A DNA stretch of 64,000 bases from Escherichia phage FL38: the sequence record PP400784. One strand, given 5' to 3'. Every line of letters begins with the position of its first letter. The stretch's first letter is position 1. Shown in pieces: positions 25,069-57,478 of the stretch. The translations under genes were made by a program, and so were the position numbers. The notes beneath the pieces were generated by a model. It ran no database searches and was not told where the DNA came from. It saw nothing but the letters and a program-made list of their open reading frames with translations.

Positions 25069-25382
25069 TATCCTAAAATCCTCACCTTGCGAACACAGAT
25101 AGTATTGAGTTCTCGCCGTACCCGTTCTTTTTCATATTCAGGAATTTTATATTCGATACCATCCCGAACAATTTCAGAAGACCGGATTATGCCAAATTTT
25201 CGTTTAGGTACAACCTTGTATTTCGGTTCACCCGCCAATAGACTCTCACAATAATCTATCTGATCACACATTGACGCTAACGCAGCATCATGTGTTTCGC
25301 AAGTTAGGACGCGACCCTTCGCGTCCACTGAGTATTGAAAGAATCCGTCTTTATCACGATAACATACAGCAAATACATGCAT
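25068..25382 (-). CDS. hypothetical protein, 104 aa (dda.1 position)
   Basis: ATG at 25382; stop overlaps the dda start (TAATG). Confidence 0.4.
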   Translation of the reverse strand: MHVFAVCYRDKDGFFQYSVDAKGRVLTCETHDAALASMCDQIDYCESLLAGEPKYKVVPKRKFGIIRSSEIVRDGIEYKIPEYEKERVRRELNTICVRKVRILG

Positions 25383-26137
25383 TATAAACCTACCTTCGCT
25401 TTCATCAATTCAATCCACGACGCATCAATCGGAAGCCCGTATTTCACGCGTTCTTTTTGTGCTGGCGTTAAGTTCTCATACTTAGAAAGAGATTCAATCA
25501 AAACGCTGGTATATTTTAGCACGATTTCGGTATTGTTTGCAATAGCCTTAAGTTTTTCTTCTTTCTTGTTGATTTCGCTAAGTGCTTGCTTGAGATCTGC
25601 AATTTTCTGATAACGTTCTTCCATACGGAAGAGAGTATTTTTAATCGCTCGCTCGGCTGCCTCTGCTTTCTCCGGTTCGTTGTGCTTTTTATGGCGCTCG
25701 ATTGCTAATTTCTTTTCTTCGATTGCCATTTCCTGATTTTTGATGCGATTCTCGTTAAGTTCGATCCACTCGATGTACTTCGCACGTAGGGCAATTTCAT
25801 CATCAGAAAGTTTACCGTTAGTTCCTAGTTCCTGGATCTCTTTAAGAGATTCGATAGTGTGATTGCCACGGAAAGAATTGTATTTCAGTTTAACCGGAAT
25901 TACATTGCCATCAACATATCCCAGATTGCAATCAATGCGCTCTAAGGAGAGTCCGTCATCACCTTCACCGAAAGCCTCACCTGAATAGGCACAATGAGTC
26001 TGACGGTAAATGTTACGAACAGTGACTAAGCTCATAGAGAAGTCTTTGTTGCGACGTGAAGCACCAGCCATGATAGAGTTCAGCCGGAAAACAACCAGCG
26101 CCAATTCTTCGTTAGATTTAAAAGCAAACAGTTTCAT
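25382..26137 (-). CDS. hypothetical protein with a degenerate HNH-like motif and coiled-coil C-terminus, 251 aa
   Basis: ATG 26137 after AAGGAGAATCAATT; CAYSGEAF...LERID...GNVIPV...NSFRGN resembles an HNH core that has lost its zinc and histidine ligands; syntenic with the srd region of T4. Confidence 0.35.
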   Translation of the reverse strand: MKLFAFKSNEELALVVFRLNSIMAGASRRNKDFSMSLVTVRNIYRQTHCAYSGEAFGEGDDGLSLERIDCNLGYVDGNVIPVKLKYNSFRGNHTIESLKEIQELGTNGKLSDDEIALRAKYIEWIELNENRIKNQEMAIEEKKLAIERHKKHNEPEKAEAAERAIKNTLFRMEERYQKIADLKQALSEINKKEEKLKAIANNTEIVLKYTSVLIESLSKYENLTPAQKERVKYGLPIDASWIELMKAKVGL

Positions 26138-28342: not shown

Positions 28343-28546
28343 TTATAGCTCAAATTTCATGAAAGTTCCTACACTTTCATTTTCATTCTCTCCGTTCTCA
28401 TCTAAGCCAAATTTGTAGACACTACCATCTGGCGATGTGTAAGAGAATACACGAAAACGGCCTACCGGATCAAGTTCTGTAAATTCATATTCTTTTCCGG
28501 CTTCAAAAAGTGCATATGTGCTTTTAAGACATTTCATCGTAATCAT
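28343..28546 (-). CDS. hypothetical protein, 67 aa
   Basis: ATG 28546 overlaps the stop of the small upstream ORF (ATGA). Confidence 0.4.
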   Translation of the reverse strand: MITMKCLKSTYALFEAGKEYEFTELDPVGRFRVFSYTSPDGSVYKFGLDENGENENESVGTFMKFEL

Positions 28547-29274: not shown

Positions 29275-29910
29275 TCAATCGAATGTAGAAAGCAACTGTT
29301 TTGTTTCTTTCAGTTGTCGTTCAAGATTTTTGCGTTTCTCTTTAAGTTGCATTTTAGCATTATTTCGCTCTCTTGTAACCTCTTTATCAATGCTCTTATT
29401 CCAGTTATCAATATCAGAATAAGTTGGCATACCCAATTCTAGACCTAATGCGGTTGGATGCAGGGTAACAGTCCATAAACCGCTAATCTTCTTAAATAGG
29501 TCGGGGTGTAGTGTACTATCTACATCTTCCGGTGTCAACTCTTTTTCTTCTTTCAGTGGTGGGATCTCGTCATATGGTTCCAGTGCATTTACTTTAATAT
29601 CAGATACCTCATCAAAGAATCCGCGTACATCCGCAGGAAATACACAAGCAATTTCCCAACCGTGATCACGCAGAGAAGTAATATTTTTCACTCCCCCACC
29701 ATGTGTGATGATTGATGTGACATTGCCATCAAGGTCCACCGAATTTACGAGAAATGGCTTATCGTCTGTCAGATCATTATAAAACTGTGCTTCGGCTGTA
29801 GTCATCTCCAGAAACAGATCTCGGATCGGACGACCATCAGGTGCGTTACCTTCCTTGAGAGTATAAAAGCGACTTACGATCCATTTTGGCGGTAAAGCAT
29901 TAGCGATCAT
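29275..29910 (-). CDS. hypothetical protein, 211 aa
   Basis: Track ORF; preceded by GC-rich hairpin GCGCCC..GGGCGC and GGAG. Confidence 0.4.
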   Translation of the reverse strand: MIANALPPKWIVSRFYTLKEGNAPDGRPIRDLFLEMTTAEAQFYNDLTDDKPFLVNSVDLDGNVTSIITHGGGVKNITSLRDHGWEIACVFPADVRGFFDEVSDIKVNALEPYDEIPPLKEEKELTPEDVDSTLHPDLFKKISGLWTVTLHPTALGLELGMPTYSDIDNWNKSIDKEVTRERNNAKMQLKEKRKNLERQLKETKQLLSTFD

Positions 29911-29960: not shown

Positions 29961-31373
29961 TTAGAAAGTCATGTTATTTGCTAGCTCGTCGAGTTTTTCT
30001 CGTTTCTCGGCTTGCTGTGCGCTTTGCGGTTTAACTTGTGCATTCTCCTGATCTGCGATCTGGTTTGGTACTTCATACCAACGCTGATTGCCTTTTTTCA
30101 CACCAACGTTAAACCGTGAATAATAGTTCTTGTCACCGTAACGAGACTTGATCTGCTTCATGAGTTGGACGCCCATTTTAGCCAGGTCTTCGGTTTCGAT
30201 AACACCCAACATAAAGTCGGCAGTAGCCGGAAGACCTGCTGATTCAGCGGTATCACTCATGTTAAGGTCGGAAGCATCCCAACCCGCGCGGGTAGTCTGT
30301 GCCGCAGTCCAACCAACAACATCCCACTTAACAAAAAATCCTCGCAGTTCTTCCGCAATCGCCTTAACTAGTGTGTAACTATTTTCAGAGTATACACGCA
30401 AGCGAGACGATGCGCAAATCCCCAGATAGTCAACAATCACAACATCAGGTTTAAACTGTTTCTTGAGTCGCAATTCATTCATTAACGCCTCAAAGTGATT
30501 GGAGTTCGCGCCACCAGTCGGATACTGCTTGATCATCAATTTTCCAACCGGACGATCTCCGATCTTCTTATTCTTAACACGCTTCATGCGTGCGGAATAT
30601 TCCGCAAAAGAAACATTACCATTATCCAATTCATCTAATGTAATGTCAAGCAAGTTTGCGTCGATACGTTTTGCTACTACATGCTCCGCCATCTCCATTG
30701 AGATATACAATACATCATAACCACATTCCATATAATCCGCAGCAAGAGAACACAATCCAAGCGATTTACCAACATTTACACCAGCAAGCAACACATTTAG
30801 CGTTTTTCTTTCCGCACCTCCTTTCGTGATTTTATTCAACATCGGCAGCTTAAACGGGATCTTATTCGCCTTAGTCTGATATAGCAAGAATCGTTTTTCA
30901 AAGTCATTAAACCAGTCATGACCTACATCAGAATCAAACGTAATGGATAGTGCTTCCTGCATGATCTCAGGAATAGCACCCTCACTCGGCAATTTCTTAT
31001 TCTGTTTCTCTTTTGGTAGTTGTGCGTTCGCCTGAATCTCTAGCGCCCGTGACATTGCATTGTACATAGCACGGTCACGAATAAATTTTTCGGTTTCCTT
31101 CATTAACCAATCAAGGTCTTCCGGTGTATTCTCCAGCGAATCGAGAAGAGTTTTAGCCCCTTCATATGTTGTCTGATTGCCTCTCTCCTTGTCTAAAGCA
31201 ATCTGTAATGCAGTTGGCGTAGGAATATTGGAATATTCGTCTACGTGCTTTTTAATCAGCTTATAAATCAGTTTTTCTTCGTCTTCGGTGAAGTAGTCCG
31301 CTTTAAGGTGAGGCCATACATTCGTAAAGAATGCGCCATTGTAAATCAACTGTGAAAAGATAGTTTTAATCAT
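29961..31373 (-). CDS. 41: replicative DNA helicase (gp41), DnaB family
   Basis: 470 aa; Walker A GVNVGKS; RecA-like DnaB C-terminal domain; between gene 61 and uvsX. Confidence 0.9.
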   Translation of the reverse strand: MIKTIFSQLIYNGAFFTNVWPHLKADYFTEDEEKLIYKLIKKHVDEYSNIPTPTALQIALDKERGNQTTYEGAKTLLDSLENTPEDLDWLMKETEKFIRDRAMYNAMSRALEIQANAQLPKEKQNKKLPSEGAIPEIMQEALSITFDSDVGHDWFNDFEKRFLLYQTKANKIPFKLPMLNKITKGGAERKTLNVLLAGVNVGKSLGLCSLAADYMECGYDVLYISMEMAEHVVAKRIDANLLDITLDELDNGNVSFAEYSARMKRVKNKKIGDRPVGKLMIKQYPTGGANSNHFEALMNELRLKKQFKPDVVIVDYLGICASSRLRVYSENSYTLVKAIAEELRGFFVKWDVVGWTAAQTTRAGWDASDLNMSDTAESAGLPATADFMLGVIETEDLAKMGVQLMKQIKSRYGDKNYYSRFNVGVKKGNQRWYEVPNQIADQENAQVKPQSAQQAEKREKLDELANNMTF

Positions 31374-44828: not shown

Positions 44829-46298
44829 CTATTCCCCATTACCATTATACTTTCTTTGCTTAGTTATCCACACTCTAACCATCTCTACAGATTCGCCGTC
44901 AGACGGATCAAGAGTTTTTCCTTTTTTCTTCATGCGGTACTTAAATCCGTTAAATCTTGCATTCTCTTGCTCGTTAAAGTCGAACATCTTTTTAAATGAT
45001 TTTCGCCCTTTACGTTCACCACATTCTAGCGGAATCATTCGATCTGTTATTACATTGGCATTAGGCAGAAACGTTTTTAGATAATCCACCAACGCCCAAT
45101 CAGGAACATATAGATTAACATTCTCCTTGCTCTCGTTGTCTCTCAGGTTACAACGCAAACATAATTGAAATGCTGGTTCCAGATAATCAGACACATGACG
45201 CGCTTTCAAAAACTCGTTTGTCGGGAGATCACAACTATTAGCAAGACCTTTTAAAATATCAATCTCCCATCGTTGAGGGTTAAAGCTGAACATCACAGCA
45301 ACATTTTTATGATGAATGTAAGAGTTAAGACCATAAGACCCGTAAGGTATCCGCTCACCAATACCATTTGTACACGCTTCACGGTCCCGATTCACGGTAT
45401 AAATGAAGTCATCGCCACATTCATTTTTAACCATATCAACAAGACGTTCAAAGGTATTGTTTGTTTCTGACTGGTGACGCGACCATCGTTCAGAGTCCGT
45501 CATAAGGATGATATTAACTCTATCTGTATTTTTATACTCTTTGAAATATAGTCTGGATTCTAGCGCACTCGGAACAAAATCGCAATTTGCATAGTATCGT
45601 AGATACTTCCCACTATATGTATCAAAGAGATTTGCACATGCTATCGTAACCTTTTTAAAGTCTCCCCACGTACCGTGTTTGTTATCGTTCAAGAAAACAA
45701 TTTTCGACCCATTCTTCCGGTGTCCTTCGTTATGTTTTACCATAACGTTGATTTTCTTCTCTAATAACGCCTCATAAAGCCCTCTAAGAGAAGAATCGAT
45801 CATATCAGTACCATCCTTCGCACTTTCTATCTTTTCTTTGATAGCGGCCTTCTCAGAGTCTTTTAGAACTAAGTTCTGTAGGCATTCCGATTCGTCGGCG
45901 ATTGGTTCGCAATGCTTCGTGATAAGTTCAAGATTAGACTTAAACGGATACTCATTAAATTCAACCAGTTGAGGAACTTCATCAATGTAAAGAGCATAAT
46001 CACCAAACATTTTTGAACGTTCCATATTAGATAACGCTGTATGTGTAATGAATATCACATCAGCACCATCTTTAACTGATTGCATTATCGACGCTTGCAC
46101 TGTCTTAAGGCTTCTTAGTCTTGTGCTATCAATCAAGACAGCACGACCGCCCATTCTTTTAAACTTATTGTAAGATTGTTCACTTAAAACACGAGATGGC
46201 GAAGCAATAACCGCTTTTTCTTTTGTCTCTAGGACGTGGGAAAGTATAGCATCAGTTTTCCCCGCCGCTGGCAATGCGATTAATGTTTCAATCTTCAT
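44829..46298 (-). CDS. P-loop NTPase of unknown function, 489 aa
   Basis: ATG 46298 with AAGGG upstream; Walker A LPAAGKTD at residues 9-16, motif-Ia-like SPSRVL, Walker B/DExx YIDEVP about 95 aa later; no canonical helicase motifs beyond that. Confidence 0.5.
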   Translation of the reverse strand: MKIETLIALPAAGKTDAILSHVLETKEKAVIASPSRVLSEQSYNKFKRMGGRAVLIDSTRLRSLKTVQASIMQSVKDGADVIFITHTALSNMERSKMFGDYALYIDEVPQLVEFNEYPFKSNLELITKHCEPIADESECLQNLVLKDSEKAAIKEKIESAKDGTDMIDSSLRGLYEALLEKKINVMVKHNEGHRKNGSKIVFLNDNKHGTWGDFKKVTIACANLFDTYSGKYLRYYANCDFVPSALESRLYFKEYKNTDRVNIILMTDSERWSRHQSETNNTFERLVDMVKNECGDDFIYTVNRDREACTNGIGERIPYGSYGLNSYIHHKNVAVMFSFNPQRWEIDILKGLANSCDLPTNEFLKARHVSDYLEPAFQLCLRCNLRDNESKENVNLYVPDWALVDYLKTFLPNANVITDRMIPLECGERKGRKSFKKMFDFNEQENARFNGFKYRMKKKGKTLDPSDGESVEMVRVWITKQRKYNGNGE

Positions 46299-46606: not shown

Positions 46607-46765
46607 TTACTTAATGATACTTACTTTACCAGATCCATGACAATGAGCGCAACACCCATCACCACGCAATCCTGTTCCGTTACAGTGTTTACACTTCTTC
46701 AACGGTAAAGCCATTATAGCAAATAAAGCAATAATGAATACCGAAACTAAATTCTCAATAATCAT
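46607..46765 (-). CDS. small membrane-anchored zinc-finger protein, 52 aa (not in track)
   Basis: ATG 46765 with GAGGG upstream; hydrophobic N-terminus then CKHCNGTG...CCAHCHGSG, two CxxCxGxG repeats as in DnaJ zinc fingers. Confidence 0.3.
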   Translation of the reverse strand: MIIENLVSVFIIALFAIMALPLKKCKHCNGTGLRGDGCCAHCHGSGKVSIIK

Positions 46766-47024
46766 AAATCGCCCTCAGTTCTTTATAGCCTCCAATGTGC
46801 TCGTTGTCAATGAATATCTGGGGGTATACAAATCGGAGGCTCTTTGAGTTCATCCTCCCCGCCAGTTCTTCAATCATATCACGGTCGGGAATAATGTCAA
46901 CCCCGACCTGCTTGAATACTGGTTTAAGTGTATACGGAATACCCAGATCATCCAGTAGCTTCATTGCACTAATACAACCATAACAATGATAAGCCTCTTT
47001 CGGTATACCGTATATCTCGATCAT
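46755..47024 (-). CDS. glutaredoxin-like protein (NrdH-like), 89 aa
   Basis: CYGC redox motif near the N-terminus; upstream of the nrdG/nrdD cluster. Confidence 0.55.
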   Translation of the reverse strand: MIEIYGIPKEAYHCYGCISAMKLLDDLGIPYTLKPVFKQVGVDIIPDRDMIEELAGRMNSKSLRFVYPQIFIDNEHIGGYKELRAIYDY

Positions 47025-47497
47025 TTCTCAGCCTTTAATCTTTCTAGTTCTTCTTCCAGTTCCTTGATCCGTTGGTCACGTTCAAAGTCACGCTGCAACT
47101 TAGTGGCGAATACTCGTTTAAACTGATTGTAATCATCGATTTTAAACACTTCTTCTTCGCCATAGCGACGCACAGAAACTTCGTAGTTATTGAAGAATTG
47201 TTGCATCATTGCTTCGGATGATAGCTCTGCTGATACCACTTTAAAATATTGATCTTCTGTAGGCGAAAACCAATTACAAGCATAAAGATAAACCTTTTCA
47301 TTGTCTGGACACTGGTAAGCCTTACCATCGATTTCAATCACAGAAACATATTCAGGTATACTAGATGAATCAATAGCTAAGACTTTAAACGCACGGTCCC
47401 CGATAAACTCGGAGATCACACGATTCGCATCACTGGTTGCAAATGCTTTACGCGCTTGTTCGTTTTTCCACTGATAGGTCATGCCAACAACAAACAT
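47021..47497 (-). CDS. member of the nrdGD-flanking paralog family (N-terminal beta domain plus C-terminal coiled coil)
   Basis: Start set to ATG 47497 (GAGG upstream); motifs GMTYQWK, IEIDG and a C-terminal charged heptad region. Confidence 0.45.
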   Translation of the reverse strand: MFVVGMTYQWKNEQARKAFATSDANRVISEFIGDRAFKVLAIDSSSIPEYVSVIEIDGKAYQCPDNEKVYLYACNWFSPTEDQYFKVVSAELSSEAMMQQFFNNYEVSVRRYGEEEVFKIDDYNQFKRVFATKLQRDFERDQRIKELEEELERLKAEK

Positions 47498-47498
47498 A

Positions 47499-48323
47499 TT
47501 ACCAACCTCGCTCTTTACCAATCAAAAATTCAACTTCACGACGTTTAATGTCTTCTTGAAGGTCTTTAATCTTCTGGCGATCTTGCATGATTTCATCCAT
47601 CTTGTCAAGTGCCGCAATGAAATCATCGAAACGTTCAAAGGTTTTACCTTCATTTGCTTCGCCAAATTTAACCATTGTCAGGCCGTAACGACTACTAAAC
47701 AGACGTTTCAACTGTCCAACGATCTTAGAATCAGTGGTTATAACTTCCAATTCTTCTACTTCACGAAAGAATTTTCTATCAGAATCAATAAACCAGCTAG
47801 TTCCTTTATGGTCTCTATCTTCGGTTGCGCTCATTAGAGTATGGTCTTTACCATCAATTTCAATTACATCAATTTGCCCACATGGACGAACATTTTTAAC
47901 AGTAAAAGGTCTATAATTTATTGCTCGTGCAATAACATAATTAAGATTAGATACGTTTTCAGCATAATGACAGAAGTCGGTCATAGCATTCGCATCTTTC
48001 CAAGTATAAGTTTTACCAACTTCCCATTTCTGGGGAACTTCTTCAACTTCACGAAAGAATTTTCGATCGAATGGACTAAAGAAATATGTTGCAGTCCAAA
48101 TGTCTTTTCCTGTAGCAGTTTTCGCCGTATGATAAACACCGTCTAGCTCTATTGCATCAATCCAACCGTTACCATCGATCTCGATGATGGTAAATGGCTT
48201 GTCACCAATAGCTGCACTAATATCGCTGTTAAGTGGAGAAAGAACACCTTCTCCGTTAGTAATAAACTCAGTTTTAGCGTTTTCATCTTTCCAGGTGTAG
48301 GTTTTACCAATTTCCCATTTCAT
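47499..48323 (-). CDS. paralog family member with duplicated N-terminal domain, 274 aa
   Basis: KWE(I/V)GKTYTWKD...IEIDG...RKFFREVEE occurs twice, followed by a coiled-coil tail. Confidence 0.5.
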   Translation of the reverse strand: MKWEIGKTYTWKDENAKTEFITNGEGVLSPLNSDISAAIGDKPFTIIEIDGNGWIDAIELDGVYHTAKTATGKDIWTATYFFSPFDRKFFREVEEVPQKWEVGKTYTWKDANAMTDFCHYAENVSNLNYVIARAINYRPFTVKNVRPCGQIDVIEIDGKDHTLMSATEDRDHKGTSWFIDSDRKFFREVEELEVITTDSKIVGQLKRLFSSRYGLTMVKFGEANEGKTFERFDDFIAALDKMDEIMQDRQKIKDLQEDIKRREVEFLIGKERGW

Positions 48324-48335
48324 AATATATTCCCC

Positions 48336-48821
48336 TTAACCGATTTTATCAAGTTCGTTTAATGCTTTCTCTGCTTCCTGTATAGCTTGCACCCTTTCCG
48401 GCATTTTGTCAAGAAAATCTTTCAACTCTTCAAAACTGGAGATATGACGCAATGCGTTAGCACCGATAGCCGCATGTGATTTGCATTCAAAGCGGATTTT
48501 ATAATTATCCATCGCCAATTTGAGAAGGTCTATTAGATCATATTCATGACCAGGCAATAAAACTTCTTTGAAGCACGCTCGGTCGCCATCGGAAAACCAT
48601 ATATTATCACCAACATCGATAGAACTAATATAATCCCCTTCGTGATTATAGATTGAACGTACATTACCCCAACGGTCTACCGTAGCGACAGTAAATGGTT
48701 TATCTAGATATGTAAACACACCATCAATATTAGGTTTTTGTTCGTAACGCCAACAATCACGCAAAATGCGCTTTTCGTCCTCACCAACCAACTTATATGT
48801 CTTCCCTTCTTCCCATTTCAT
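48336..48821 (-). CDS. paralog family member, about 161 aa
   Basis: Starts MKWEEGKTYKL at ATG 48821; coiled-coil C-terminus. Confidence 0.45.
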   Translation of the reverse strand: MKWEEGKTYKLVGEDEKRILRDCWRYEQKPNIDGVFTYLDKPFTVATVDRWGNVRSIYNHEGDYISSIDVGDNIWFSDGDRACFKEVLLPGHEYDLIDLLKLAMDNYKIRFECKSHAAIGANALRHISSFEELKDFLDKMPERVQAIQEAEKALNELDKIG

Positions 48822-48825
48822 AATA

Positions 48826-49353
48826 TCATCTCTCATTTTTGATACGTGATTCTAATTGGATCATACGGTCGCGCGTTTGTTTGTATTCTCGGATAGCACC
48901 GATCCGGCTAGGCATACCATCCAGTACGCTCTTAATACCTTCTAGGGTAGTGATTTTAGCAATGCTATTATGCAACCCCATCTTATCGATCAACTGAATG
49001 TCGTAGGCTTCCATAAGCAGACCCAGACGTTCTAAAGTTAGGTCTTCTTCTTTTTCTTCAGAATCTGGAATCTTAGGTTCAATAATAACTTCGGTAAAGA
49101 AACGACGCTCACCCGACCAAAACCACACACCGGAACAGCCAATAGGGGATTCTTTTAACGTCATAGAGTCGAAATCACTACCGATAATAGTAATTTCTCT
49201 AACATCACCATCATCGTCAATGTCTTCTACCCTAAACGGGCGACCAGCCAACAAGTCAACAATACATCTGTTAATAGACGACGAAAATTTAGTCAGTTCG
49301 GCTTTCGACGCTTCGCATTCAATCTTGTAAGTTTTACCAACTTCCCATTCCAT
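48826..49353 (-). CDS. paralog family member, about 175 aa
   Basis: Starts MEWEVGKTYKI at ATG 49353 (GAGGTGA upstream); coiled-coil C-terminus. Confidence 0.45.
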   Translation of the reverse strand: MEWEVGKTYKIECEASKAELTKFSSSINRCIVDLLAGRPFRVEDIDDDGDVREITIIGSDFDSMTLKESPIGCSGVWFWSGERRFFTEVIIEPKIPDSEEKEEDLTLERLGLLMEAYDIQLIDKMGLHNSIAKITTLEGIKSVLDGMPSRIGAIREYKQTRDRMIQLESRIKNER

Positions 49354-49363
49354 AATAATCACC

Positions 49364-49873
49364 TCAAATAATTTTCACTGGAATACTATTAACAATCTTG
49401 TATTGTACTTGATTGTCAGATCCCCGCCACGGCTTCTTCGTTGGCATATCTTTAATATAACGCCCATCGATGAACATGTCAACTGATTCTACAATTTTTC
49501 TTTGCTCATCATTCAATTGGTCAAGGGTATAACCGGACCATAGCCAAATATCTTTATTTGGCATCCATGATTTTACTTCATCGATGATCCGCTGTACACC
49601 CTTTAAATTGCGTTTATACAGTGGATCGCCACCTAAGAATGTTAGCCCCTGAATAAAATCAGGTCTAAGCAGATCCAGAATCAATCCCATTGTATCATCG
49701 GTGAATGGTTCCCCGTTCTTAGGATTGAGTAGGCTAGCATTAAAGCAACCATCACATGCATGTGAACATCCGGTAACGTAAAGGGAGACTCTCACTCCCT
49801 CACCGTTAACCATATCACAATCTTTAATATCGGCATAGCGTAGTTTGCCGTATGTATCAGAACTCATATTCAA
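49364..49873 (-). CDS. nrdG: anaerobic ribonucleotide reductase activating protein NrdG (radical SAM)
   Basis: CxxxCxxC cluster (GCSHACDGC); 169 aa; close to nrdD. Confidence 0.85.
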   Translation of the reverse strand: MNMSSDTYGKLRYADIKDCDMVNGEGVRVSLYVTGCSHACDGCFNASLLNPKNGEPFTDDTMGLILDLLRPDFIQGLTFLGGDPLYKRNLKGVQRIIDEVKSWMPNKDIWLWSGYTLDQLNDEQRKIVESVDMFIDGRYIKDMPTKKPWRGSDNQVQYKIVNSIPVKII

Positions 49874-50009
49874 TTACCCCGAACTCGTTTACAATCTGCG
49901 CTTTATAGTAACCACCGCGAGATGCTAATAGATAAGCTGGGCTTAGGTATTCGTATTCACGGATTTCTACTTGTGCGTTTTCAGTTTCCCAAATCAGTAA
50001 AGTCCACAT
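49857..50009 (-). CDS. hypothetical small protein, about 50 aa
   Basis: Start moved to ATG 50009 after AGGAGAATCAAAT; overlaps the nrdG start by 17 nt. Confidence 0.3.
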   Translation of the reverse strand: MWTLLIWETENAQVEIREYEYLSPAYLLASRGGYYKAQIVNEFGVIEYEF

Positions 50010-50051
50010 ATTTGATTCTCCTGTAAAGTTGTATCTCGTCTTGATGAATAT

Positions 50052-50080
50052 AGTATAGGGGATCTCGCGATCCCCGTCAA
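50052..50080 (-). promoter_or_regulatory. early promoter TTGAC-[GGGGATC-TCGC-GATCCCC]-TATACT, palindromic spacer with two GATC sites
   Basis: Palindrome at 50058-50075; drives 49857..50009 and nrdG. Confidence 0.55.
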
Positions 50081-50084
50081 GCAT

Positions 50085-50612
50085 TTATTTTAAATTTTTT
50101 CGAATGTAGTCAGACCATTCCTTCCCTGTCAGTTCGGTCCCATTCTGGAAACTGAAATATTCATACGGCATCGAGTCAAGATAAAACAGGATCATACATC
50201 GCGCCATATAATACCAATCACGATTAAAGTAAACTACGTTATCACCAGTACCATCAACCCCTTTATCATAACCATCGCGGGTACGGGCGACCCATTGAAT
50301 AGTATCATTTTTCTCGCGGATCGTAACAGGTTCCCAATATCCAGCACATCCAGCATGACCACACGAACAAGTCAGGAAATATTGACCTTTTGCTTTGTTG
50401 TCATCCCATTCACGATGGATTGGTTCGATCTCGTGAAACAGTGCTAAGCAATCATGATTATGCAACACTGGCTTACCATCAATCAATGCATGGAATGTAT
50501 ACAAACGACCAGTAGACAAATAGCTATCCTCACGCTCAACCAGTTCAATAGCAATCTTTTTAGCTCGTTCTTTGTGTCGTTGTGCTTTACGCTTACGGTT
50601 TAATGATTTCAT
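50085..50612 (-). CDS. hypothetical protein, about 175 aa (Cys/His-rich centre)
   Basis: Start moved to ATG 50612 (GAGGTGA upstream). Confidence 0.4.
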   Translation of the reverse strand: MKSLNRKRKAQRHKERAKKIAIELVEREDSYLSTGRLYTFHALIDGKPVLHNHDCLALFHEIEPIHREWDDNKAKGQYFLTCSCGHAGCAGYWEPVTIREKNDTIQWVARTRDGYDKGVDGTGDNVVYFNRDWYYMARCMILFYLDSMPYEYFSFQNGTELTGKEWSDYIRKNLK

Positions 50613-50629
50613 ATTCACCTCACACATTA

Positions 50630-51169
50630 TCAAAGGTCGCGATATAGTACATTATGAAAATGAGAACTTGCATTACCAATATTGTAGATAATAAATTCTT
50701 CATCCGGCGCTTGCGCTACAAATTGAGTATGAGCAACCGCCACAACCTTAAAAATACGATCCGTGATCTTGTGTTTAATTTCTGCCCCTACTTCCATAGG
50801 AACATATTCATTTGTTTCTGTTTCAGTCGCAAAACAGCCATCTTCTTCATAAGCACGAACAAATCGATCGCAATCAGTACGCTTAACAAATTCAAGAGTA
50901 TACAATTCTCGTGAATTGTCGGTATAGACCAATACAGAATTATTATGATAGCGAATCACATACAGGTTATTATCATCGTCAATTACGCAAAAGCTACGGA
51001 TTCCTTCGCCTTGACTCCAGCAGATATTAACCACCGTTCCTCTAATAAAAAAACTTTCCTTTAAATTAAAACTAGTCAATGTGCTAGCGTGCATTTTAAC
51101 AACAACACCATCGCCAATTTCCAGTTTACGAAGTTTAACTTCTTTGTTCAGTACACAAAACATCATCAT
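50630..51169 (-). CDS. hypothetical protein, 179 aa
   Basis: Triple ATG at 51161-51169 preceded by GAGAGGA. Confidence 0.4.
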   Translation of the reverse strand: MMMFCVLNKEVKLRKLEIGDGVVVKMHASTLTSFNLKESFFIRGTVVNICWSQGEGIRSFCVIDDDNNLYVIRYHNNSVLVYTDNSRELYTLEFVKRTDCDRFVRAYEEDGCFATETETNEYVPMEVGAEIKHKITDRIFKVVAVAHTQFVAQAPDEEFIIYNIGNASSHFHNVLYRDL

Positions 51170-51198
51170 GTTGTCCTCTCGTTGTTTTCGATGTGAGC

Positions 51199-51226
51199 AT
51201 TATACATTAGCTAATCATGTTGTCAA
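51199..51226 (-). promoter_or_regulatory. early promoter TTGACA-N16-TATAAT
   Basis: Drives 50630..51169. Confidence 0.6.
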
Positions 51227-51232
51227 CACCCC

Positions 51233-51264
51233 AAAACGAAAAAGCCGACCCTTTCGGATCGGCT
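51233..51264 (-). terminator. rho-independent terminator after nrdD
   Basis: AGCCGA-(10 nt)-TCGGCT followed by a U-run. Confidence 0.75.
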
Positions 51265-51269
51265 GAAAA

Positions 51270-53132
51270 TTACATGTGCTTAACGCGGTTTACCATCTCG
51301 GAGTGTTTCCCGTGGTTAAATGGACGCAGATCAACAGATCCAAGATATCCACTAACGCGACGGATAACATTCATCTTTTCCAGATTGTCATTGCCGCAAT
51401 CAGGGCAAACAAAACCAGACTCGGTCGCTCTCATTTCCTTATTAGATCCGCATACATGACATACATCAGAAGGAGTATTAACACCGAAGTAGTGCAATTT
51501 ATCCATTGCATAGTCTACTACAGTTTCAAGACCTTTCAGGTTGTTTTTCATGTCTGGGAACTCAACATAAGAGATCATGCCACCGGACGCCAGCCAGTGA
51601 TAATCTTTCTCAAAGTCGATTTTCTCAAATGGTGTGACTTTCCGGTCTACGTCAAGGTGGAATGAGTTGGTGTACCAGTCTTTATCGGTAGCACCCTTAA
51701 CAATACCAAATTTCTCTCTGTCCAGTCGATTAAATCGATAGCAAAGACTCTCGGCTGGCGTACCGTAAAGACTAAACCCAAGTCCGGTTTCGTCCTTCCA
51801 TTTTTCAGTATAATGACGCAAGATCTTAAGAATATGTTTACCGTATCGCTGCGCATCTTCCGAATCAAACGGATGAACACCAAACAGGACGCTCAATACC
51901 TCATGTAAACCAATATATCCAAGAGAGATACTAGCGCGACCATCTTTCAGCACTTCCAAAATTTCATCGTTTTGATGAATACGGAAAAATGCACCTTCGG
52001 TATACAGTACAGGAGCAACATTGGCTTTAGCCCCTTTTAAAGCGTCTACGCGACTCATAAGCGCATCAAAACAAATAGGCAGACGATTCGCTAGCTCTTG
52101 TTCGAATAGCTCAATTCTGCGCATTACAGACGCTTTACCAGCACGACGCGCGGCAATAAGGGCAATACGCGGAAGATTCAGAGTCACAACACCTAAGTTA
52201 TTACGTCCGTCTAATACTTCTTCGCCTTTCTCATTATGCCACACACCCAGGAAGCTACGACAACCCATCGGGCTAACCGGAACACTAGATCCAGTGATGC
52301 TACGGTTATTCTTCGCAGAGATATAATCAGGGTAAAGACGCTTACTCGAACATTCCAATGCAAGTTGCTTAATGTCGTAGTTCGGATCTTCCGGTTTAAG
52401 GTTTAATCCTTCTTCTAAGAACATCACCAGCTTAGGAAACACCGGAGTTATACCGTCTTTACCTAAACCTTTAGTTCGAACTTTCAGGATCGCTTTCTGA
52501 ATCAGTTTTTCTTCCCAGCTAGTACCCATACCAAAGGTTAAAGTCACAAAAGGCGTTTGACCGTTGGTGGAGAACAAAGTGTTGATTTCATATTCCAACG
52601 CTTGATACCCGTCTAAAGTTTCTTTTTCTGTCTTCTCTTGTGCATAGAGAGTATCAGCTTTGATTCCGTAGGTTTCGGCATCAGCAAGGTGTTTATGATA
52701 TGTTTTCTCAACGTATGGCGCTAAAACCTGATCGATGTTTGCAATTGTGGTCCCGCCATATTGATGACTTGCCACCTGTGCGATAATTTGAGCGGTTACA
52801 GCACAAGCAACGCCGATTGATTTCGGACTTTCGATTTGTGCGCTACCCAATTTAAAACCATTCTCTAACATGTCTTTGAGATTAACAAGACAGCAGTTAG
52901 TAAACGGCATAGCTGGTGCATAATCCATATCATGATAATGAATATCACCGTCTACATGCGCTTTATAGATGTGCTCAGGTAACACGGTTTTAGCAATCTG
53001 TTTAGACACAGCGCCAGCAATCAGATCTCGACGTGTCGGGAATGTTCGCGCGTCTTTGTTCGCGTTCTCTTTGCTTACTTCGTTTTCTTTACCCGTTGCG
53101 ATCTCTGTAATGTCTTTGATTAGTTTTTCCAT
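51270..53132 (-). CDS. nrdD: anaerobic ribonucleoside-triphosphate reductase NrdD (glycyl radical enzyme)
   Basis: 620 aa; C-terminal glycyl-radical motif RVSGYLGS; four-Cys zinc motif before it; uninterrupted ORF. Confidence 0.95.
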   Translation of the reverse strand: MEKLIKDITEIATGKENEVSKENANKDARTFPTRRDLIAGAVSKQIAKTVLPEHIYKAHVDGDIHYHDMDYAPAMPFTNCCLVNLKDMLENGFKLGSAQIESPKSIGVACAVTAQIIAQVASHQYGGTTIANIDQVLAPYVEKTYHKHLADAETYGIKADTLYAQEKTEKETLDGYQALEYEINTLFSTNGQTPFVTLTFGMGTSWEEKLIQKAILKVRTKGLGKDGITPVFPKLVMFLEEGLNLKPEDPNYDIKQLALECSSKRLYPDYISAKNNRSITGSSVPVSPMGCRSFLGVWHNEKGEEVLDGRNNLGVVTLNLPRIALIAARRAGKASVMRRIELFEQELANRLPICFDALMSRVDALKGAKANVAPVLYTEGAFFRIHQNDEILEVLKDGRASISLGYIGLHEVLSVLFGVHPFDSEDAQRYGKHILKILRHYTEKWKDETGLGFSLYGTPAESLCYRFNRLDREKFGIVKGATDKDWYTNSFHLDVDRKVTPFEKIDFEKDYHWLASGGMISYVEFPDMKNNLKGLETVVDYAMDKLHYFGVNTPSDVCHVCGSNKEMRATESGFVCPDCGNDNLEKMNVIRRVSGYLGSVDLRPFNHGKHSEMVNRVKHM

Positions 53133-53142
53133 TGTATCACCT

Positions 53143-53166
53143 ATGAAAAAGCGGGATTTCTCCCGC
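53143..53166 (-). terminator. terminator-like hairpin just upstream of the nrdD ribosome-binding site
   Basis: GCGGGA-gaaa-TCCCGC then UUUUUC, then AGGTGA and the ATG. Confidence 0.6.
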
Positions 53167-53176
53167 TCGTTGATAG

Positions 53177-53671
53177 TTATTTTACCAGTTCTGCTAATTC
53201 TTTTTCTTTAGCTTCTAGTTCAGCTTTAAGCTGTTTAATCTCTTGTCGCTTCTTATTAGCGGCTTCTTGCTTACTATTTCGGATAACCTGATCTAGATAC
53301 AACTCCCAATCCTGAATATTTTTGATAATGTAACCGTCAACATTAATTGGTCGGAGATTCAGTACAGCTTCCAGTTTAGTCGCAAAAACTTTAATTGCTG
53401 GTGTGAAGTATTCATATTCGTTATCTTCAAACCAATAACCTAGACTTGCATTATCAATACGAAGACGAAGTTCAAGATCAAGGTCTTTATCTTCGGTGTA
53501 AAGATCTTTCACCTGACCCAGCGAACTAACAACAACTTTAAAACGAATTTTATCTACACCACCAAACACATCAGTAAGGATACCAGCAATTGAGCTATTA
53601 GCGCAAGATTGGTCGCTGAATGCGTCAAGGTTTTCTTTAGTTACAGTATACCAAACATCTTGTACCCACAT
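53177..53671 (-). CDS. paralog family member (coiled-coil C-terminus), 164 aa
   Basis: ATG 53671 after GAGAGGATTATATT; C-terminal QEIKQLKAELEAKEKELAEL. Confidence 0.45.
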   Translation of the reverse strand: MWVQDVWYTVTKENLDAFSDQSCANSSIAGILTDVFGGVDKIRFKVVVSSLGQVKDLYTEDKDLDLELRLRIDNASLGYWFEDNEYEYFTPAIKVFATKLEAVLNLRPINVDGYIIKNIQDWELYLDQVIRNSKQEAANKKRQEIKQLKAELEAKEKELAELVK

Positions 53672-53701
53672 AATATAATCCTCTCGTTGTTAAGTGGGAG
53701 T

Positions 53702-53729
53702 ATTATAGCATACTCCCTTCGCATGTCAA
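53702..53729 (-). promoter_or_regulatory. early promoter TTGACA-N16-TATAAT with inverted repeat GGGAGTA/TACTCCC around the -10
   Basis: The -35 overlaps the stop of the upstream gene; drives 53177..53671. Confidence 0.6.
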
Positions 53730-54904
53730 GCACTAACTTTTTTCTTTACTGCTTTCACCTTCTGGCGAATTGCTCGAATCTCTTCGATCTCTTTTTCAGT
53801 CTCTTTAACAATTTCTTTGCGATTCTGAATATCTGTATCTAGATTATCATCAAGTTTAGGCAGCATGTCAATCAAGAACTTTTTAAAGTCTTTCAGGTTT
53901 CGGATAACAGCACCTTCACCCATTACCGCCACGCCTACACCATCCGGCAGATCACCAAACAGCTTAACCAGTTCAGACAGATGATCATGATCTTCTAGTG
54001 CTTCTTCCGGTTCAGATGGCAGTTCAACAAAGTTATAACGTTCATCATTGCTGATCAGGTGATACCAGCAAAGCCCAAAAGATTTAGGAGTATATTCTAC
54101 ACCACCAACTTCAACTGCGTCAACACTTCCGAAAGAATCTACTTTAGTTACCTTAAATCCATGTTCCAGCGTTTTAATAATTTCAATAACATGACTGGAT
54201 ACGGTTTCAGTATTAAACCAATGAGGCAAATTATGTGGATTTGGCTTGTATCGTTCGCCTACTTTAAATCTCTGACCACGCTCTTGCATACGGACATATT
54301 CAACTCGCGTGATTTCCGCGAAGTATTCAAATTCGCTACCGTCAAACAAGCAATTCCATTGATCACAAAAACGGTCCGCCTTGACGGTTTCACCTTTCGC
54401 GGTGATCATGGTAGCTGATCCGTGCAATTCTTCTTCAACTAAAAAGCCATATTCGACAAAATCAACAAGTTTCATGGCTTCTTTGTGCTCTGGGTCATGC
54501 TCTCCCCAGAATCGCTTAAATTCTTGCAAACCTTCTGGGGTAAACGAATAACATTTACCTTTTTCAAAGTAAGTCGGCATTGCATCCTCTTTCTTGTTCA
54601 TCGCTTCGTATGCCTCTTTTGAGATACGTTTAAAGTATTTGCGCTCATTGTGCATAATCATAGTAGACCAATAATAAACGATATCCTCAGCGGAATAAAC
54701 TACATCTCCAGCTTCAATAGTAATAACATGACCGTGGTCATCTTTTTCTAATACTTTAAAGCCCTTTTCTACGATTTCAGCAACCCGAATATGACCACGG
54801 CGCGAAGCATCGGTCAGAATAATTGAATAGCGAGAAAAGTCTAGAAACTCATCTTTACCGCCTTCACGGAATGCATAGTAATGACCTTCAAAGAATTTAG
54901 CCAT
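53726..54904 (-). CDS. paralog family member with repeated N-terminal domains, 392 aa
   Basis: Several internal repeats of the beta-domain motif (ERKYFKRI, HGFKV..V) and a coiled-coil tail. Confidence 0.5.
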   Translation of the reverse strand: MAKFFEGHYYAFREGGKDEFLDFSRYSIILTDASRRGHIRVAEIVEKGFKVLEKDDHGHVITIEAGDVVYSAEDIVYYWSTMIMHNERKYFKRISKEAYEAMNKKEDAMPTYFEKGKCYSFTPEGLQEFKRFWGEHDPEHKEAMKLVDFVEYGFLVEEELHGSATMITAKGETVKADRFCDQWNCLFDGSEFEYFAEITRVEYVRMQERGQRFKVGERYKPNPHNLPHWFNTETVSSHVIEIIKTLEHGFKVTKVDSFGSVDAVEVGGVEYTPKSFGLCWYHLISNDERYNFVELPSEPEEALEDHDHLSELVKLFGDLPDGVGVAVMGEGAVIRNLKDFKKFLIDMLPKLDDNLDTDIQNRKEIVKETEKEIEEIRAIRQKVKAVKKKVSA

Positions 54905-54935
54905 AATATAATCCTCTCGTTGTTTAGATGGGAGT

Positions 54936-54964
54936 ATCTTACTACTCCCGTTTCATCATGTCAA
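54936..54964 (-). promoter_or_regulatory. early promoter TTGACA-N17-TAAGAT with inverted repeat GGGAGTA/TACTCCC
   Basis: Nearly identical cassette to those at 11306-11340 and 55840-55874. Confidence 0.6.
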
Positions 54965-55527
54965 GCGTTAAATGACTTTTGGATCTCTTTCAGTTCAGCT
55001 ACTTTATCTGCGCTGAATTTAGCGTAGGTATCATGTCGAATAATTTCACTTTCAAGAAAGGTTTCCAGTCGAGATCTATTTTCAATAAGGAACTCTTTCA
55101 GGTCTTCCGCGTTCTTGACAAAGATTTTATTGTCGGTAATGTCATCTTCAATCGCAAAGGAGATAGAGCGAACTTTACCAAACAAGTTAATCAGATCTTC
55201 CAGAGATTCTTCTTTCTTAACTGGTTTCATTTCTTCAAACTGCTTTTTAGTGATGCGTTTAAAGTATTTGCGCTCGCTTGCATCAATCATGATTGACGCA
55301 CCCTCATAATCATGAGTTTCTACCAAATACACTTTACCCATAACATTAACCGTAAGAACTTTAAAGCCCCTGTGAAGCACACCATACAGGAACTTGTTAT
55401 GTTGTGGGTAGCGTTTAACAAATTCCTCTGCGGACTCAGCATTACGGAAAGTGTAATAACGACCTCGTTCAAAAACAGCATCATTTGAAGACTTAGCCGG
55501 ATACAATTTATACGTTTTCTGTACCAT
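54961..55527 (-). CDS. paralog family member, about 188 aa
   Basis: Start set to ATG 55527 (GAGGATTATATT upstream); motifs RGFKVL, ERKYFKRI. Confidence 0.45.
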   Translation of the reverse strand: MVQKTYKLYPAKSSNDAVFERGRYYTFRNAESAEEFVKRYPQHNKFLYGVLHRGFKVLTVNVMGKVYLVETHDYEGASIMIDASERKYFKRITKKQFEEMKPVKKEESLEDLINLFGKVRSISFAIEDDITDNKIFVKNAEDLKEFLIENRSRLETFLESEIIRHDTYAKFSADKVAELKEIQKSFNA

Positions 55528-55541
55528 AATATAATCCTCTA

Positions 55542-55814
55542 TCATTTCACTAATTGAACAGCACGGAACAGAATGCGCTCACACGGAAGCAGCATAAATT
55601 CCCAACGCGGATCAAAGTCTTTAGCGGTGTATGTTTTCCCATCAACCGAGATTTCACTTACATAACCAACAGGTGACACTTTAAGAACAGTAAACCCATT
55701 CTTGATGACTTCGTAGGTATATTTCACCCCTTCGTATTCATCATCTAAGAAGTCTTTATGTGCTTGCTCAGATTTAAAAACATAGGCAACACCGGATTTA
55801 AACATCTTACGCAT
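55542..55814 (-). CDS. paralog family member (N-terminal domain only), 90 aa
   Basis: Start set to ATG 55814 after AAGGAGAATCAACA; NGFTVLKV...DGKTYTAKDF. Confidence 0.45.
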   Translation of the reverse strand: MRKMFKSGVAYVFKSEQAHKDFLDDEYEGVKYTYEVIKNGFTVLKVSPVGYVSEISVDGKTYTAKDFDPRWEFMLLPCERILFRAVQLVK

Positions 55815-55845
55815 TGTTGATTCTCCTTCTTGATTAGATGGGAGT

Positions 55846-55874
55846 ATTTTACTACTCCCATTTCTTATTGTCAA
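55846..55874 (-). promoter_or_regulatory. early promoter TTGACA-N17-TAAAAT with inverted repeat GGGAGTA/TACTCCC
   Basis: Immediately downstream of the gp49 stop. Confidence 0.6.
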
Positions 55875-56375: not shown

Positions 56376-56657
56376 TTAACCATTAATCTTGTTTTTGACT
56401 ACAAAGGATCGGAACTCATCAAAGCCACCGATATAATCACCATCATAGAAAATCTGCGGCATGGTGGCAATAACTTCTACCCCTGCGCGATCCTGAATAT
56501 CGGCAATGATAGAATCAATCTTTACCGGACGACCGTTTTCGTCCACACCATCATTAACCGGAATGTAGATGTAAGGGATCTTACGCGATTCACAAAGGCG
56601 CTTTGCATTCTGGCAATACTTACAGTTGTAACCTTCAAAACCAAAAATTTCTACCAT
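56376..56657 (-). CDS. nrdC: thioredoxin/glutaredoxin NrdC
   Basis: CKYC redox motif near the N-terminus (T4 NrdC has CVYC); about 93 aa; start set to ATG 56657 after GAGGT. Confidence 0.65.
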   Translation of the reverse strand: MVEIFGFEGYNCKYCQNAKRLCESRKIPYIYIPVNDGVDENGRPVKIDSIIADIQDRAGVEVIATMPQIFYDGDYIGGFDEFRSFVVKNKING

Positions 56658-56665
56658 GTTATACC

Positions 56666-57478
56666 TCAATCTACGTTAGTTACATAAACTTCTTGTGTAT
56701 CAGAAGACTTGCCACCTGAACGATCTAGGCAATAGGTCTTATTCAACAGGACGCAGTTTAAATCATTCCGCTTGATAAAGTCAAGAAGATGATCATTTAC
56801 CTTTCCCTTATGATGTGTGACATTACTGATACCAAACTGAAAACCACGCGCCATAATAGATTCTACCCACTGATAGAATTTAATCTCTTCCTCGTCACTC
56901 CAGAACTTATTATATTCCGCAGAAGTGATAAGGTACGGCGGGTCCAAATAAACGAAATCACCCGGCAAGATCTCGATCTCGTCATAACGACCAGACGTAA
57001 AACTGATTCGACCGTCTTTGTTTTCTTCCTTAAAATTCAGGACACGCTCTACCGCGTTTTCGTTAAAAGTCCGGCGACCAAAATTAGCATTAAATTCGCC
57101 CTTCCGGTTATGACGGTTAATGTTGCTAAAACTATGCTGAATCAACACAAACAGCGATAGCGGATCTGGATTCTCGTTATACTTCTTGCGGAATGCCATA
57201 TAAGAATCTTTATCATCACGAGACAAACCATTTTCGGCAATAATCCTCTTGATCATAAAAACCGGATCAGGACACTCATCAATGGCCTTGTAAGCGTCAA
57301 TTAAGCGGTGATCATAGTCATTAGCCAGCACATCCCCTTCGACGTACAGAGACACGCTCAAGCCACCACAAAAGGCATCGACAAAGCGGTTATAGTGCTT
57401 AGGGAAATACTTACTAACACCAGGCAATAACTTTTCCTTATTGCCCGTATAGGGAATTAAACCTAATGCTTTCTTCAT
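56666..57478 (-). CDS. dam: DNA adenine methyltransferase (Dam, GATC-specific N6-adenine MTase)
   Basis: 270 aa; SAM motif DAFCGGLS and catalytic DPPY (YLDPPYL) in Dam order; T4 Dam is of similar size. Confidence 0.8.
   Translation of the reverse strand: MKKALGLIPYTGNKEKLLPGVSKYFPKHYNRFVDAFCGGLSVSLYVEGDVLANDYDHRLIDAYKAIDECPDPVFMIKRIIAENGLSRDDKDSYMAFRKKYNENPDPLSLFVLIQHSFSNINRHNRKGEFNANFGRRTFNENAVERVLNFKEENKDGRISFTSGRYDEIEILPGDFVYLDPPYLITSAEYNKFWSDEEEIKFYQWVESIMARGFQFGISNVTHHKGKVNDHLLDFIKRNDLNCVLLNKTYCLDRSGGKSSDTQEVYVTNVD

Follow-up and report, generated by a model that had tools for sequence, protein, structure and literature searches.

What are the eight adjacent genes that lie in two tandem arrays on either side of nrdG and nrdD in Escherichia phage FL38 (record PP400784), and what could such a set of related proteins do? 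A first-pass annotation of the window (the whole stretch of 64,000 nucleotides (nt) analysed here) had read them as one paralogous family, in which a β-rich N-terminal domain (N-domain) precedes a charged coiled coil, and had proposed a diversifying set of host-targeting or anti-defence proteins. Our analysis indicates that they belong, almost certainly, to a lineage-specific Krischvirus expansion of the T4 GoF/Frd.2/MotB.1 family, which comprises nine genes (g1 to g9, Table 1). The family itself has been described before, as the 'phage LSm-like fold' family, with GoF (comC-alpha) as its founding member (Kim et al. 2025, PMC12152347), and RefSeq already gives goF/frd.2 labels to two of the genes. 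The source phage is a Krischvirus, an RB49/GEC-3S-like T4-type coliphage: the 8.85-kb stretch with the locus matches 58 phage records at 96-99% nucleotide identity, every one of them a Krischvirus (RB49, phi1, JSE, GEC-3S, ECD7 and others), and at least 80% of it is covered in 55 of the 58. The order nrdH, g1-g4, nrdG, three small open reading frames (ORFs), nrdD, g5-g8, endonuclease VII is identical across all annotated relatives examined, and all eight flanking genes lie on the minus strand, where the first-pass annotation had placed them.

Are these genes really one family? As pairwise identity between members is only 23-34% in BLASTP, significance was tested with profiles. A hidden Markov model (HMM) was built from all domains minus those of one gene and searched against the 1024 six-frame ORFs of the window, each gene being left out in turn. 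Every left-out gene was recovered, with E values of 5e-12 (g1), 6e-31 (g2), 3e-12 (g3), 1e-13 (g4), 1.3e-3 (g5, the weakest of the eight), 2e-22 (g6), 2e-10 (g7) and 1e-15 (g8), and the best unrelated ORF in these searches stood at E ~0.1-0.5. Since the left-out genes were always recovered by N-domain HMMs, the similarity is real and located in the N-domain, not in low-complexity coil. PHROG profile matches cross-link all eight genes independently. Both lines of evidence bear out the earlier reading of eight adjacent genes built from the same N-domain parts, with a similarity (E 6e-31 to 1.3e-3) that goes beyond coiled-coil composition. The motifs quoted for the domain are all present, namely MKWE[IVE]GKTY in g3, g4 and the two N-domains of g2 (g2a and g2b), IEIDG or IELDG in g1 and g2, and ERKYFKRI in g6a and g7, and the domain is indeed duplicated in g2 and triplicated in g6.

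The count of eight holds for the locus but not for the family, which extends to a ninth gene. This gene, g9, lies directly downstream of the gene 41 helicase (29961-31373), outside the two arrays, and was found by HMMs never trained on it (E 4e-9 to 3e-5). A broad-family HMM recovers it at E 1.4e-14 and the divergent g5 at E 1.5e-11. The nine genes carry 12 N-domains in total, 11 of them in g1-g8, each of ~90 aa and in one to three copies per protein. Two further candidates, 25071-25409 and 28343-28546, were dismissed as noise (E 0.1-0.6, unrelated PHROGs), and the idea that g9 is the ortholog of T4 gp61.2, which has the same size and a similar neighbourhood, was dropped as there is no similarity between the two. 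The three genes between nrdG and nrdD (49857-50084, 50085-50612 and 50630-51169, the last two called x182 and x179 below) give no family signal by BLASTP or HMMs and belong to separate PHROGs of unknown function.

To which known proteins are they related? There is no match to the family in Pfam, NCBIfam or PDB sequences, and a smaller homology search with the domain alignment reached close Krischvirus relatives only, so that an exhaustive search was needed for GoF. That search (hmmsearch, 1.84 billion representative proteins) gave 76 matches only, ~65 of them small and phage-sized and ten with two or three domains; among the 76 is a GoF cluster (P0066, 65% identical to GoF) at E 4.4e-7. The long profile matches P0057, P0074, P0080, P0095-97, P0101 and P0111 (800-2000 aa, matched partially and repeatedly) were set aside as repeat proteins without relation to the family. 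When the 12-domain profile was aligned directly with the T4 proteins by hhalign, GoF matched over its whole N-terminal domain (97.3% probability, E 1.7e-11, 91 columns) and Frd.2 over 85 columns (89.7%, E 1.8e-6); MotB.1 matched weakly with this profile and at 1.3e-5 with the broader HMM. Annotation of relatives points the same way: the RefSeq orthologs of g6 and g7 are named 'goF mRNA metabolism modulator', g6 is named frd.2 in RB49 and JSE, and the annotators of RB49, JSE and ECD7 called g6 (and g7) frd.2-like.

T4 GoF shares with the Krischvirus members the homologous ~90-aa N-terminal domain, the same predicted barrel and PDB neighbours, the core motif [FW]xxGxxY ... PFxV ... G.V ... [WF].....E..[FY]F.EV, and the order of parts, in which a linker joins the N-terminal domain to a C-terminal domain that varies. 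In T4, goF is an early gene. The differences lie in architecture and position. GoF has a single N-domain, in contrast to the two of g2 and three of g6, a multi-domain architecture absent from PMC12152347, and its C-terminal domain forms a strongly acidic tail (pI 4.2) where the g4-type module is predicted to be a helix, a hairpin and a long helix. T4 has one goF, between 39.2 and cef; Krischvirus has none there and nine paralogues elsewhere. Frd.2 and MotB.1 are small early proteins, as the Krischvirus members presumably are too, but they are single-domain (119-128 aa) and not positional orthologs, as Krischvirus has no family member in the slots next to frd and motB.

How did nine genes arise? 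We scanned GEC-3S with a broad HMM of 75 domains over 141.9 of its 163.4 kb (1-91.7 and 113.5-163.4 kb), and found the same nine genes only, at two loci. In this genome the goF/motB.1 slot (39.2 to dexA) and the frd.2 slot (beside frd) are both without a family member. We noticed that 39.2 (FmdB-like) is followed there directly by dexA (at ~22.2-23.1 kb of the window), the T4 block goF-cef-motB-motB.1-motB.2 being absent. Three dispersed single-domain genes in T4 thus stand against nine genes, twelve domains and two loci in Krischvirus. The eight locus genes are intact in all nine relatives examined, and g9, which was checked in GEC-3S, was also seen in ECD7. By nearest-neighbour relations g1-g4 form one group and g6a, g6c, g7 and g8 another; these relations, and the similarity of g2a to g2b, fit growth of the family by local tandem and intragenic duplication. 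The papers that could be searched make no mention of the Krischvirus expansion, of multi-barrel proteins or of domain-level allele exchange. The nine-gene, two-locus expansion, the multi-barrel proteins and the exchange described below therefore appear to be new, as incremental additions to a known family.

The fold of the N-domain was approached through g8, which consists of little else. Its AlphaFold2 model (predicted local distance difference test (pLDDT) 91.2, predicted template modelling score (pTM) 0.81) is a bent five-stranded antiparallel barrel of SH3/LSm-like topology, with β1, two inserted helices and then β2 to β5. In BFVD this model retrieves 42 phage proteins at E<=1e-3 with template modelling (TM) scores of 0.7-0.85, one of them annotated GoF and most from T4-like phages of Escherichia, Proteus, Aeromonas, Edwardsiella, Citrobacter, Morganella, Pectobacterium and Klebsiella; the BFVD model of the ECD7 ortholog of g9 superposes on it with a TM score of 0.81. 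The nearest solved folds are FeoA and the SH3-like domains of DtxR/IdeR, and also the UvrD/PcrA Tudor domain; FeoA and IdeR are likewise the nearest solved folds published for GoF (PMC12152347). The kinship with FeoA and the C-terminal SH3-like domains of DtxR/IdeR (CATH 2.30.30.90) is one of shape, with 5-16% identity to the Krischvirus domains and no Pfam FeoA match, and, unlike these proteins, the Krischvirus domains have no metal-ligand histidines. Conservation across the domains is restricted to hydrophobic positions buried in the barrel (Y, F, V, G, F), a pattern typical of a binding scaffold rather than an enzyme. The isoelectric point (pI) is 4.2-5.7 in nine of the 12 N-domains, the exceptions being those of g7 (9.2) and g8 (7.8) and g6a (6.5).

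T4 GoF provides the functional leads. Its missense alleles D25Y and G84R permit T4 growth on restrictive rho mutants, and with GoF(D25Y) the mRNA of gene 41 has a longer half-life, through a post-transcriptional effect; wild-type GoF has little effect in the mRNA assay, and T4 knock-outs plate normally (PMC12152347). The protein is present at ~20,000 copies per cell, and both GoF and MotB.1 migrate as dimers (PMC12152347). In a CRISPRi-ART screen, T4 frd.2 was the sole gene of unknown function to score as 'Fit' (PMC11879866). Where GoF has G84 and D25, several Krischvirus paralogues have K/R and Y/F: G84 aligns with the K/R of an ER[KR][YF]F motif in g2a, g2b, g4, g6a and g7 (5/12 domains), and D25 with Y in g2b and F in g4, g6a and g6b (4/12). 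Some paralogues may thus naturally resemble GoF gain-of-function alleles, which we take as a lead and not as evidence.

Could the N-domains be Hfq/Sm-like RNA chaperones, assembled into rings and in direct contact with RNA, as the term 'LSm-like fold family' proposes? The g8 model shares with Hfq/Sm (LSm) the small, bent, five-stranded antiparallel barrel, and the GoF mutant is linked genetically to mRNA stability, since D25Y raises RNA half-life. However, the helices are inserted between β1 and β2 in the model instead of preceding the barrel, the top structural neighbours are FeoA and DtxR-SH3 and not Hfq, and there are neither Sm1/Sm2 motifs nor Pfam LSM or Hfq matches in the Krischvirus domains. 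The neutral to basic N-domains of g7, g8 and g6a, and the basic or aromatic residues at the GoF suppressor positions of several paralogues, would suit RNA binding, but most domains are acidic. Moreover, AlphaFold3 predicts neither a dimer nor a hexamer of GoF or MotB.1 with confidence, wild-type GoF is without RNA effect (PMC12152347), and two or three linked barrels per chain, as in g2 and g6, are ill-suited to a simple hexameric ring. We therefore consider Hfq-like rings improbable.

The C-terminal part is less uniform than the first-pass annotation had suggested. Eight of the nine proteins have a low-confidence linker and then a C-terminal part, and g8 has no C-terminal part at all. In the g4 model (pLDDT 73.8) confidence falls below 50 at residues 95-103, followed by a helix (103-118), a short hairpin and a terminal helix of 38 residues (138-175). 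Family-wide homology of the C-terminal halves was rejected, as leave-one-out HMMs were non-significant except for g3 (E 2e-4); the architecture is alike, but sequence similarity is confined to the subgroups g1-g4 and g6-g7 (g3/g4 by BLASTP, g6/g7 by PHROG), so that a C-terminal part shared by sequence across the family is not upheld. The tails are 33-56% charged. When the best 21-residue heptad window was compared with 500 shuffles, shuffled sequences did as well in 1/500 cases for g3, 9/500 for g5, 24-25/500 for g2 and g6, 38-52/500 for g1, g4 and g9, and 459/500 for g7. Of the charged coiled coil proposed earlier, the charged helical tail stands, but heptads are clear in just two proteins, g3 and g5, with g2 and g6 on the borderline; for this reason 'charged amphipathic terminal helix' is the safer wording.

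How are the arrays expressed? Several genes had been credited with their own promoter cassette, which is true of g5, g6 and g8, but not of g1-g4: the promoter scan of the locus found no cassette before any of these four, and the left array is presumably read through from upstream. A promoter directly before g2 (48352-48324) was rejected, its -10 box abutting the start codon. The promoters of g5, g6 and g8 match the sigma-70 consensus at 11-12 of 12 positions, and the three cassettes are mutually alignable over ~80 nt (73-96% similar over 26-78 nt). Each has an AT-rich upstream region, consensus -35 and -10 boxes, a 7-9-bp GGGAGTA...TACTCCC hairpin overlapping the -10 box, an AGAGGA-type Shine-Dalgarno and the start codon, and g6 and g7 each have a stop codon that overlaps the -35 box of the cassette that follows. 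These cassettes are instances of the published promoter-early stem-loop (PeSL) elements, the strong early promoters combined with terminators of RB49 and phi1 (Arbiol et al. 2010, PMC2839356). A stem-loop over the -10 box is a common published subclass (PMC2839356; Comeau et al. 2014, PMC4122927), nrdD, which the cassettes adjoin, is named among the few known PeSL-associated genes (PMC2839356), and we see no substantive difference from the published element. The right array is thus served in part by sigma-70-type early promoters, in keeping with the early region assumed at first. The unrelated x179 is also preceded by a consensus sigma-70 promoter, with a separate upstream terminator instead.

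Table 1. Family members, N-domains and promoter cassettes in the window (start codons refined via ribosome-binding site and PeSL positions and the GEC-3S/RB49 annotation)
Feature	Position	Strand	Description
g1	47021-47497	-	158 aa; one N-domain and C-terminal helical part; phrog_5347; start as annotated in GEC-3S/RB49
g2	47499-48323	-	274 aa; two tandem N-domains and C-terminal part
g2a / g2b N-domains	48033-48323 / 47736-48032	-	51% identity between them
g3	48336-48821	-	161 aa; one N-domain and C-terminal part
g4	48826-49353	-	175 aa; one N-domain, linker, then predicted helix-hairpin-long helix (AlphaFold2)
g5	53177-53671	-	164 aa; most divergent N-domain and C-terminal part; phrog_3710 cross-match
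g6	53726-54904	-	392 aa; three N-domains and C-terminal part; phrog_8944
g6 N-domains	54611-54904, 54287-54583, 53996-54277	-	HMM domains
g7	54961-55527	-	188 aa; one basic N-domain (pI 9.2) and C-terminal part; PHROG match
g8	55542-55814	-	90 aa; stand-alone N-domain; start at 55814, downstream of own promoter
g9	29275-29910	-	211 aa; N-domain, long linker, charged C-terminal helix; phrog_16187
Promoter of g5	53695-53729	-	TTGACA-16-TATAAT (12/12); 8-bp stem-loop, loop and 3' arm carry -10 box; -14.5 kcal/mol, z -3.2; annotated in GEC-3S
Promoter of g6	54927-54964	-	TTGACA-17-TAAGAT; GGGAGTA/TACTCCC stem-loop; -11.9 kcal/mol, z -2.8; repeat D2/D3/D8
Promoter of g8	55837-55874	-	TTGACA-17-TAAAAT; 9-bp stem-loop; -13.8 kcal/mol, z -4.2; annotated in GEC-3S

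Which part of the proteins varies between phages? Nine relatives with 98-100% identity in NrdD and NrdG show a bimodal N-domain identity, either >90% or 41-61%. The N-domain of g1 is swapped in UPWr_E1, Makalu_001, E26 and ECD7, g2b and the N-domain of g4 in UPWr_E1, that of g3 in RB49, JSE and AV108 (41-42% identity) and that of g5 in Makalu_001 and Whisky, while the C-terminal part of the N-domain-swapped genes stays 82-100% identical. The N-domain is therefore the variable part, as had been supposed. The reverse case, a C-terminal swap, was seen in g7 (Whisky, ECD7) and g4 (ECD7). Across these relatives the eight genes are constant and the domain number of g2 varies, a single N-domain being found in E26, AV108 and metagenomic relatives (P0001/P0006-10).

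Does this variation reflect diversification by positive selection, as the first-pass wording implied? In the swapped segments synonymous divergence (dS) is 1.0-1.8 and nonsynonymous divergence (dN) 0.32-0.57, with dN/dS ~0.2-0.45, and dS is 0.05-0.2 in the flanks. Recent positive selection was rejected as the cause of N-domain divergence, dS being saturated and dN/dS below 1, and 'diversifying' does not hold in this sense. Because of these values, the divergent N-domains are best read as old alleles imported by recombination. Unequal and homeologous exchange would find ready substrates in conserved DNA blocks at the domain boundaries: block D1 (32 nt) at the 5' end of the domain in g2a, g2b, g3 and g4, blocks D4/D9/D5 (30-57 nt) at domain ends, 288-291 nt apart in g2, and a 50-nt block common to g6a and g7.

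The neighbouring x182 and x179 (phrog_8242 and phrog_14838), which are unrelated to the family, also occur as sharply different alleles, with amino acid identities of 50% and 72-73% in JSE, Makalu_001 and UPWr_E1. As these genes swap too, part of the mosaicism is a property of the hyperplastic locus, and the whole nrdG-nrdD neighbourhood is a recombination hot spot.

Could the swapping nevertheless be the footprint of an arms race? The proteins would then form an anti-defence or host-takeover toolkit outside RNA metabolism, each barrel neutralising a different host protein, for instance the sensor or effector of a defence system, and whole-domain replacement confined to N-domains among otherwise 98-100% identical phages speaks for it. 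Furthermore, the region around the genes is hyperplastic, rich in PeSLs and equipped with strong early promoters, the surfaces of most domains are acidic, the nearest folds (FeoA, DtxR SH3-like and the RNA-polymerase-binding UvrD/PcrA Tudor domain) are protein-protein interaction modules, and unswapped family sequence evolves faster than nrdD (dN/dS ~0.3 versus 0.01-0.03). However, no defence system has been tied to a family member, GoF pulled down from uninfected cells brought along no host partner, the swapped alleles carry no signature of recent positive selection, and the exchange of x182 and x179 means that the mosaicism may reflect the locus (PeSL-mediated shuffling) and not function. 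We regard an anti-defence toolkit as possible, but on the unlikely side.

A bolder view, and one we hold to be unlikely, is that the arrays are a cassette-exchange system, which swaps, duplicates and deletes barrels on a constant C-terminal scaffold and so gives a repertoire of binders against host factors. Each barrel would be flanked by DNA handles, 5' the ribosome-binding site with MKWEVGKTY and 3' ER[KR][YF]F.EV, and each phage would have its own individual set of some twelve binders, directed at host factors that vary, such as defence nucleases that target RNA or the Rho/degradosome machinery.

The opposite view is that the genes are neutral ORFan passengers, which persist and multiply by riding PeSL cassettes and mini-circles and have no shared activity. 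Indeed, PeSLs mediate modular shuffling in RB49 and phi1, by insertion, deletion and replacement of ORFans (PMC2839356), the T4 relatives are dispensable in the laboratory, and domain number and alleles vary freely among relatives. Against this, the eight locus genes are intact in 9/9 relatives and g9 is present in GEC-3S and ECD7, even swapped alleles have dN/dS far below 1, the fold is kept across T4-like phages of many host genera, T4 spends ~20,000 copies per cell on GoF, and frd.2 came out as a fitness gene. Neutral passengers thus seem very improbable.

What, then, do the proteins do? They are probably modular binding adaptors, that is, abundant early, non-enzymatic proteins in which the barrel would serve as target-recognition module with a surface free to vary. 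As T4 GoF and MotB.1 run as dimers, the terminal helix would mediate self-association. From GoF genetics, the likely arena would be phage and host RNA metabolism, the target being an RNA or, likelier, a protein of the termination/decay machinery, and paralogues and alleles would differ in specificity. Protein contacts are preferred over RNA contacts because nine of the 12 domains are acidic. That the adaptors act on the RNA metabolism/termination machinery, more often via protein than via RNA, is a tentative proposal; it is nonetheless the one we favour, with the anti-defence toolkit second and Hfq-like rings third. Taken as a whole, the combination of family expansion and binding adaptors has, in our estimation, slightly better than an even chance of being the right explanation.

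Several points weigh against this explanation. Its functional handle comes from the T4 relative GoF, and, as the effect of wild-type GoF is small, the link to RNA comes from a gain-of-function allele. The acidity of most N-domains disfavours direct RNA binding, and the GoF pull-down recovered GoF only, with no stable host partner (PMC12152347). Self-association of the C-terminal part is suggested by a single-chain model and weak heptad statistics. We infer early expression from the promoter consensus and from published PeSL assays on other cassettes. Finally, the 21.8-kb structural-gene block of GEC-3S (91.7-113.5 kb) lay outside the scan that gave the count of nine.

The surroundings of the arrays hold some further features. 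Upstream in window coordinates, a 52-aa ORF (46607-46765, minus strand) has an N-terminal hydrophobic helix and then two CxxCxGxG motifs (CKHCNGTG ... CAHCHGSG) that recall a zinc-finger unit of the DnaJ type, and a 489-aa ORF (44829-46298, minus strand; phrog_2467), kept in relatives as 'hypothetical protein', has a Walker-A-like PAAGKT motif near its N-terminus. The small minus-strand ORF at 49857-50084 overlaps the end of nrdG; it is annotated with 153 nt in most relatives and with 228 nt in E26 and AV108, and a promoter-like site (50080-50052) lies inside the longer reading frame. Homing endonucleases mark two neighbouring genes in relatives: nrdD, intact in the window, is split in two by one in JSE, and nrdC, which abuts dam directly in the window (56376-57478, minus strand), is separated from it by an HNH homing endonuclease in GEC-3S.

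In conclusion, GoF has puzzled geneticists ever since the discovery, in the 1970s, that its mutants rescue T4 on rho-mutant hosts, and its family was recognised only in 2025. If the Krischvirus members are ordinary dispensable early genes, the gain is a better annotation of ~ten 'hypothetical proteins' per Krischvirus genome; the significance would rise only if the cassette repertoire determines host range or counter-defence. Cassette exchange, if true, would be a domain-level analogue of anti-defence islands and would give the GoF/Frd.2 family a role in host range. In either case, nine paralogues with twelve barrels are a richer natural experiment than the three single-domain genes of T4. The natural domain swaps on a constant scaffold, together with the variants at the GoF mutation positions, form a ready allelic series for binding and host-range tests, for which the basic g7 and g8, and g2b, g4 and g6a/b with an aromatic residue at the D25 position, would be the first candidates for RNA or partner binding.

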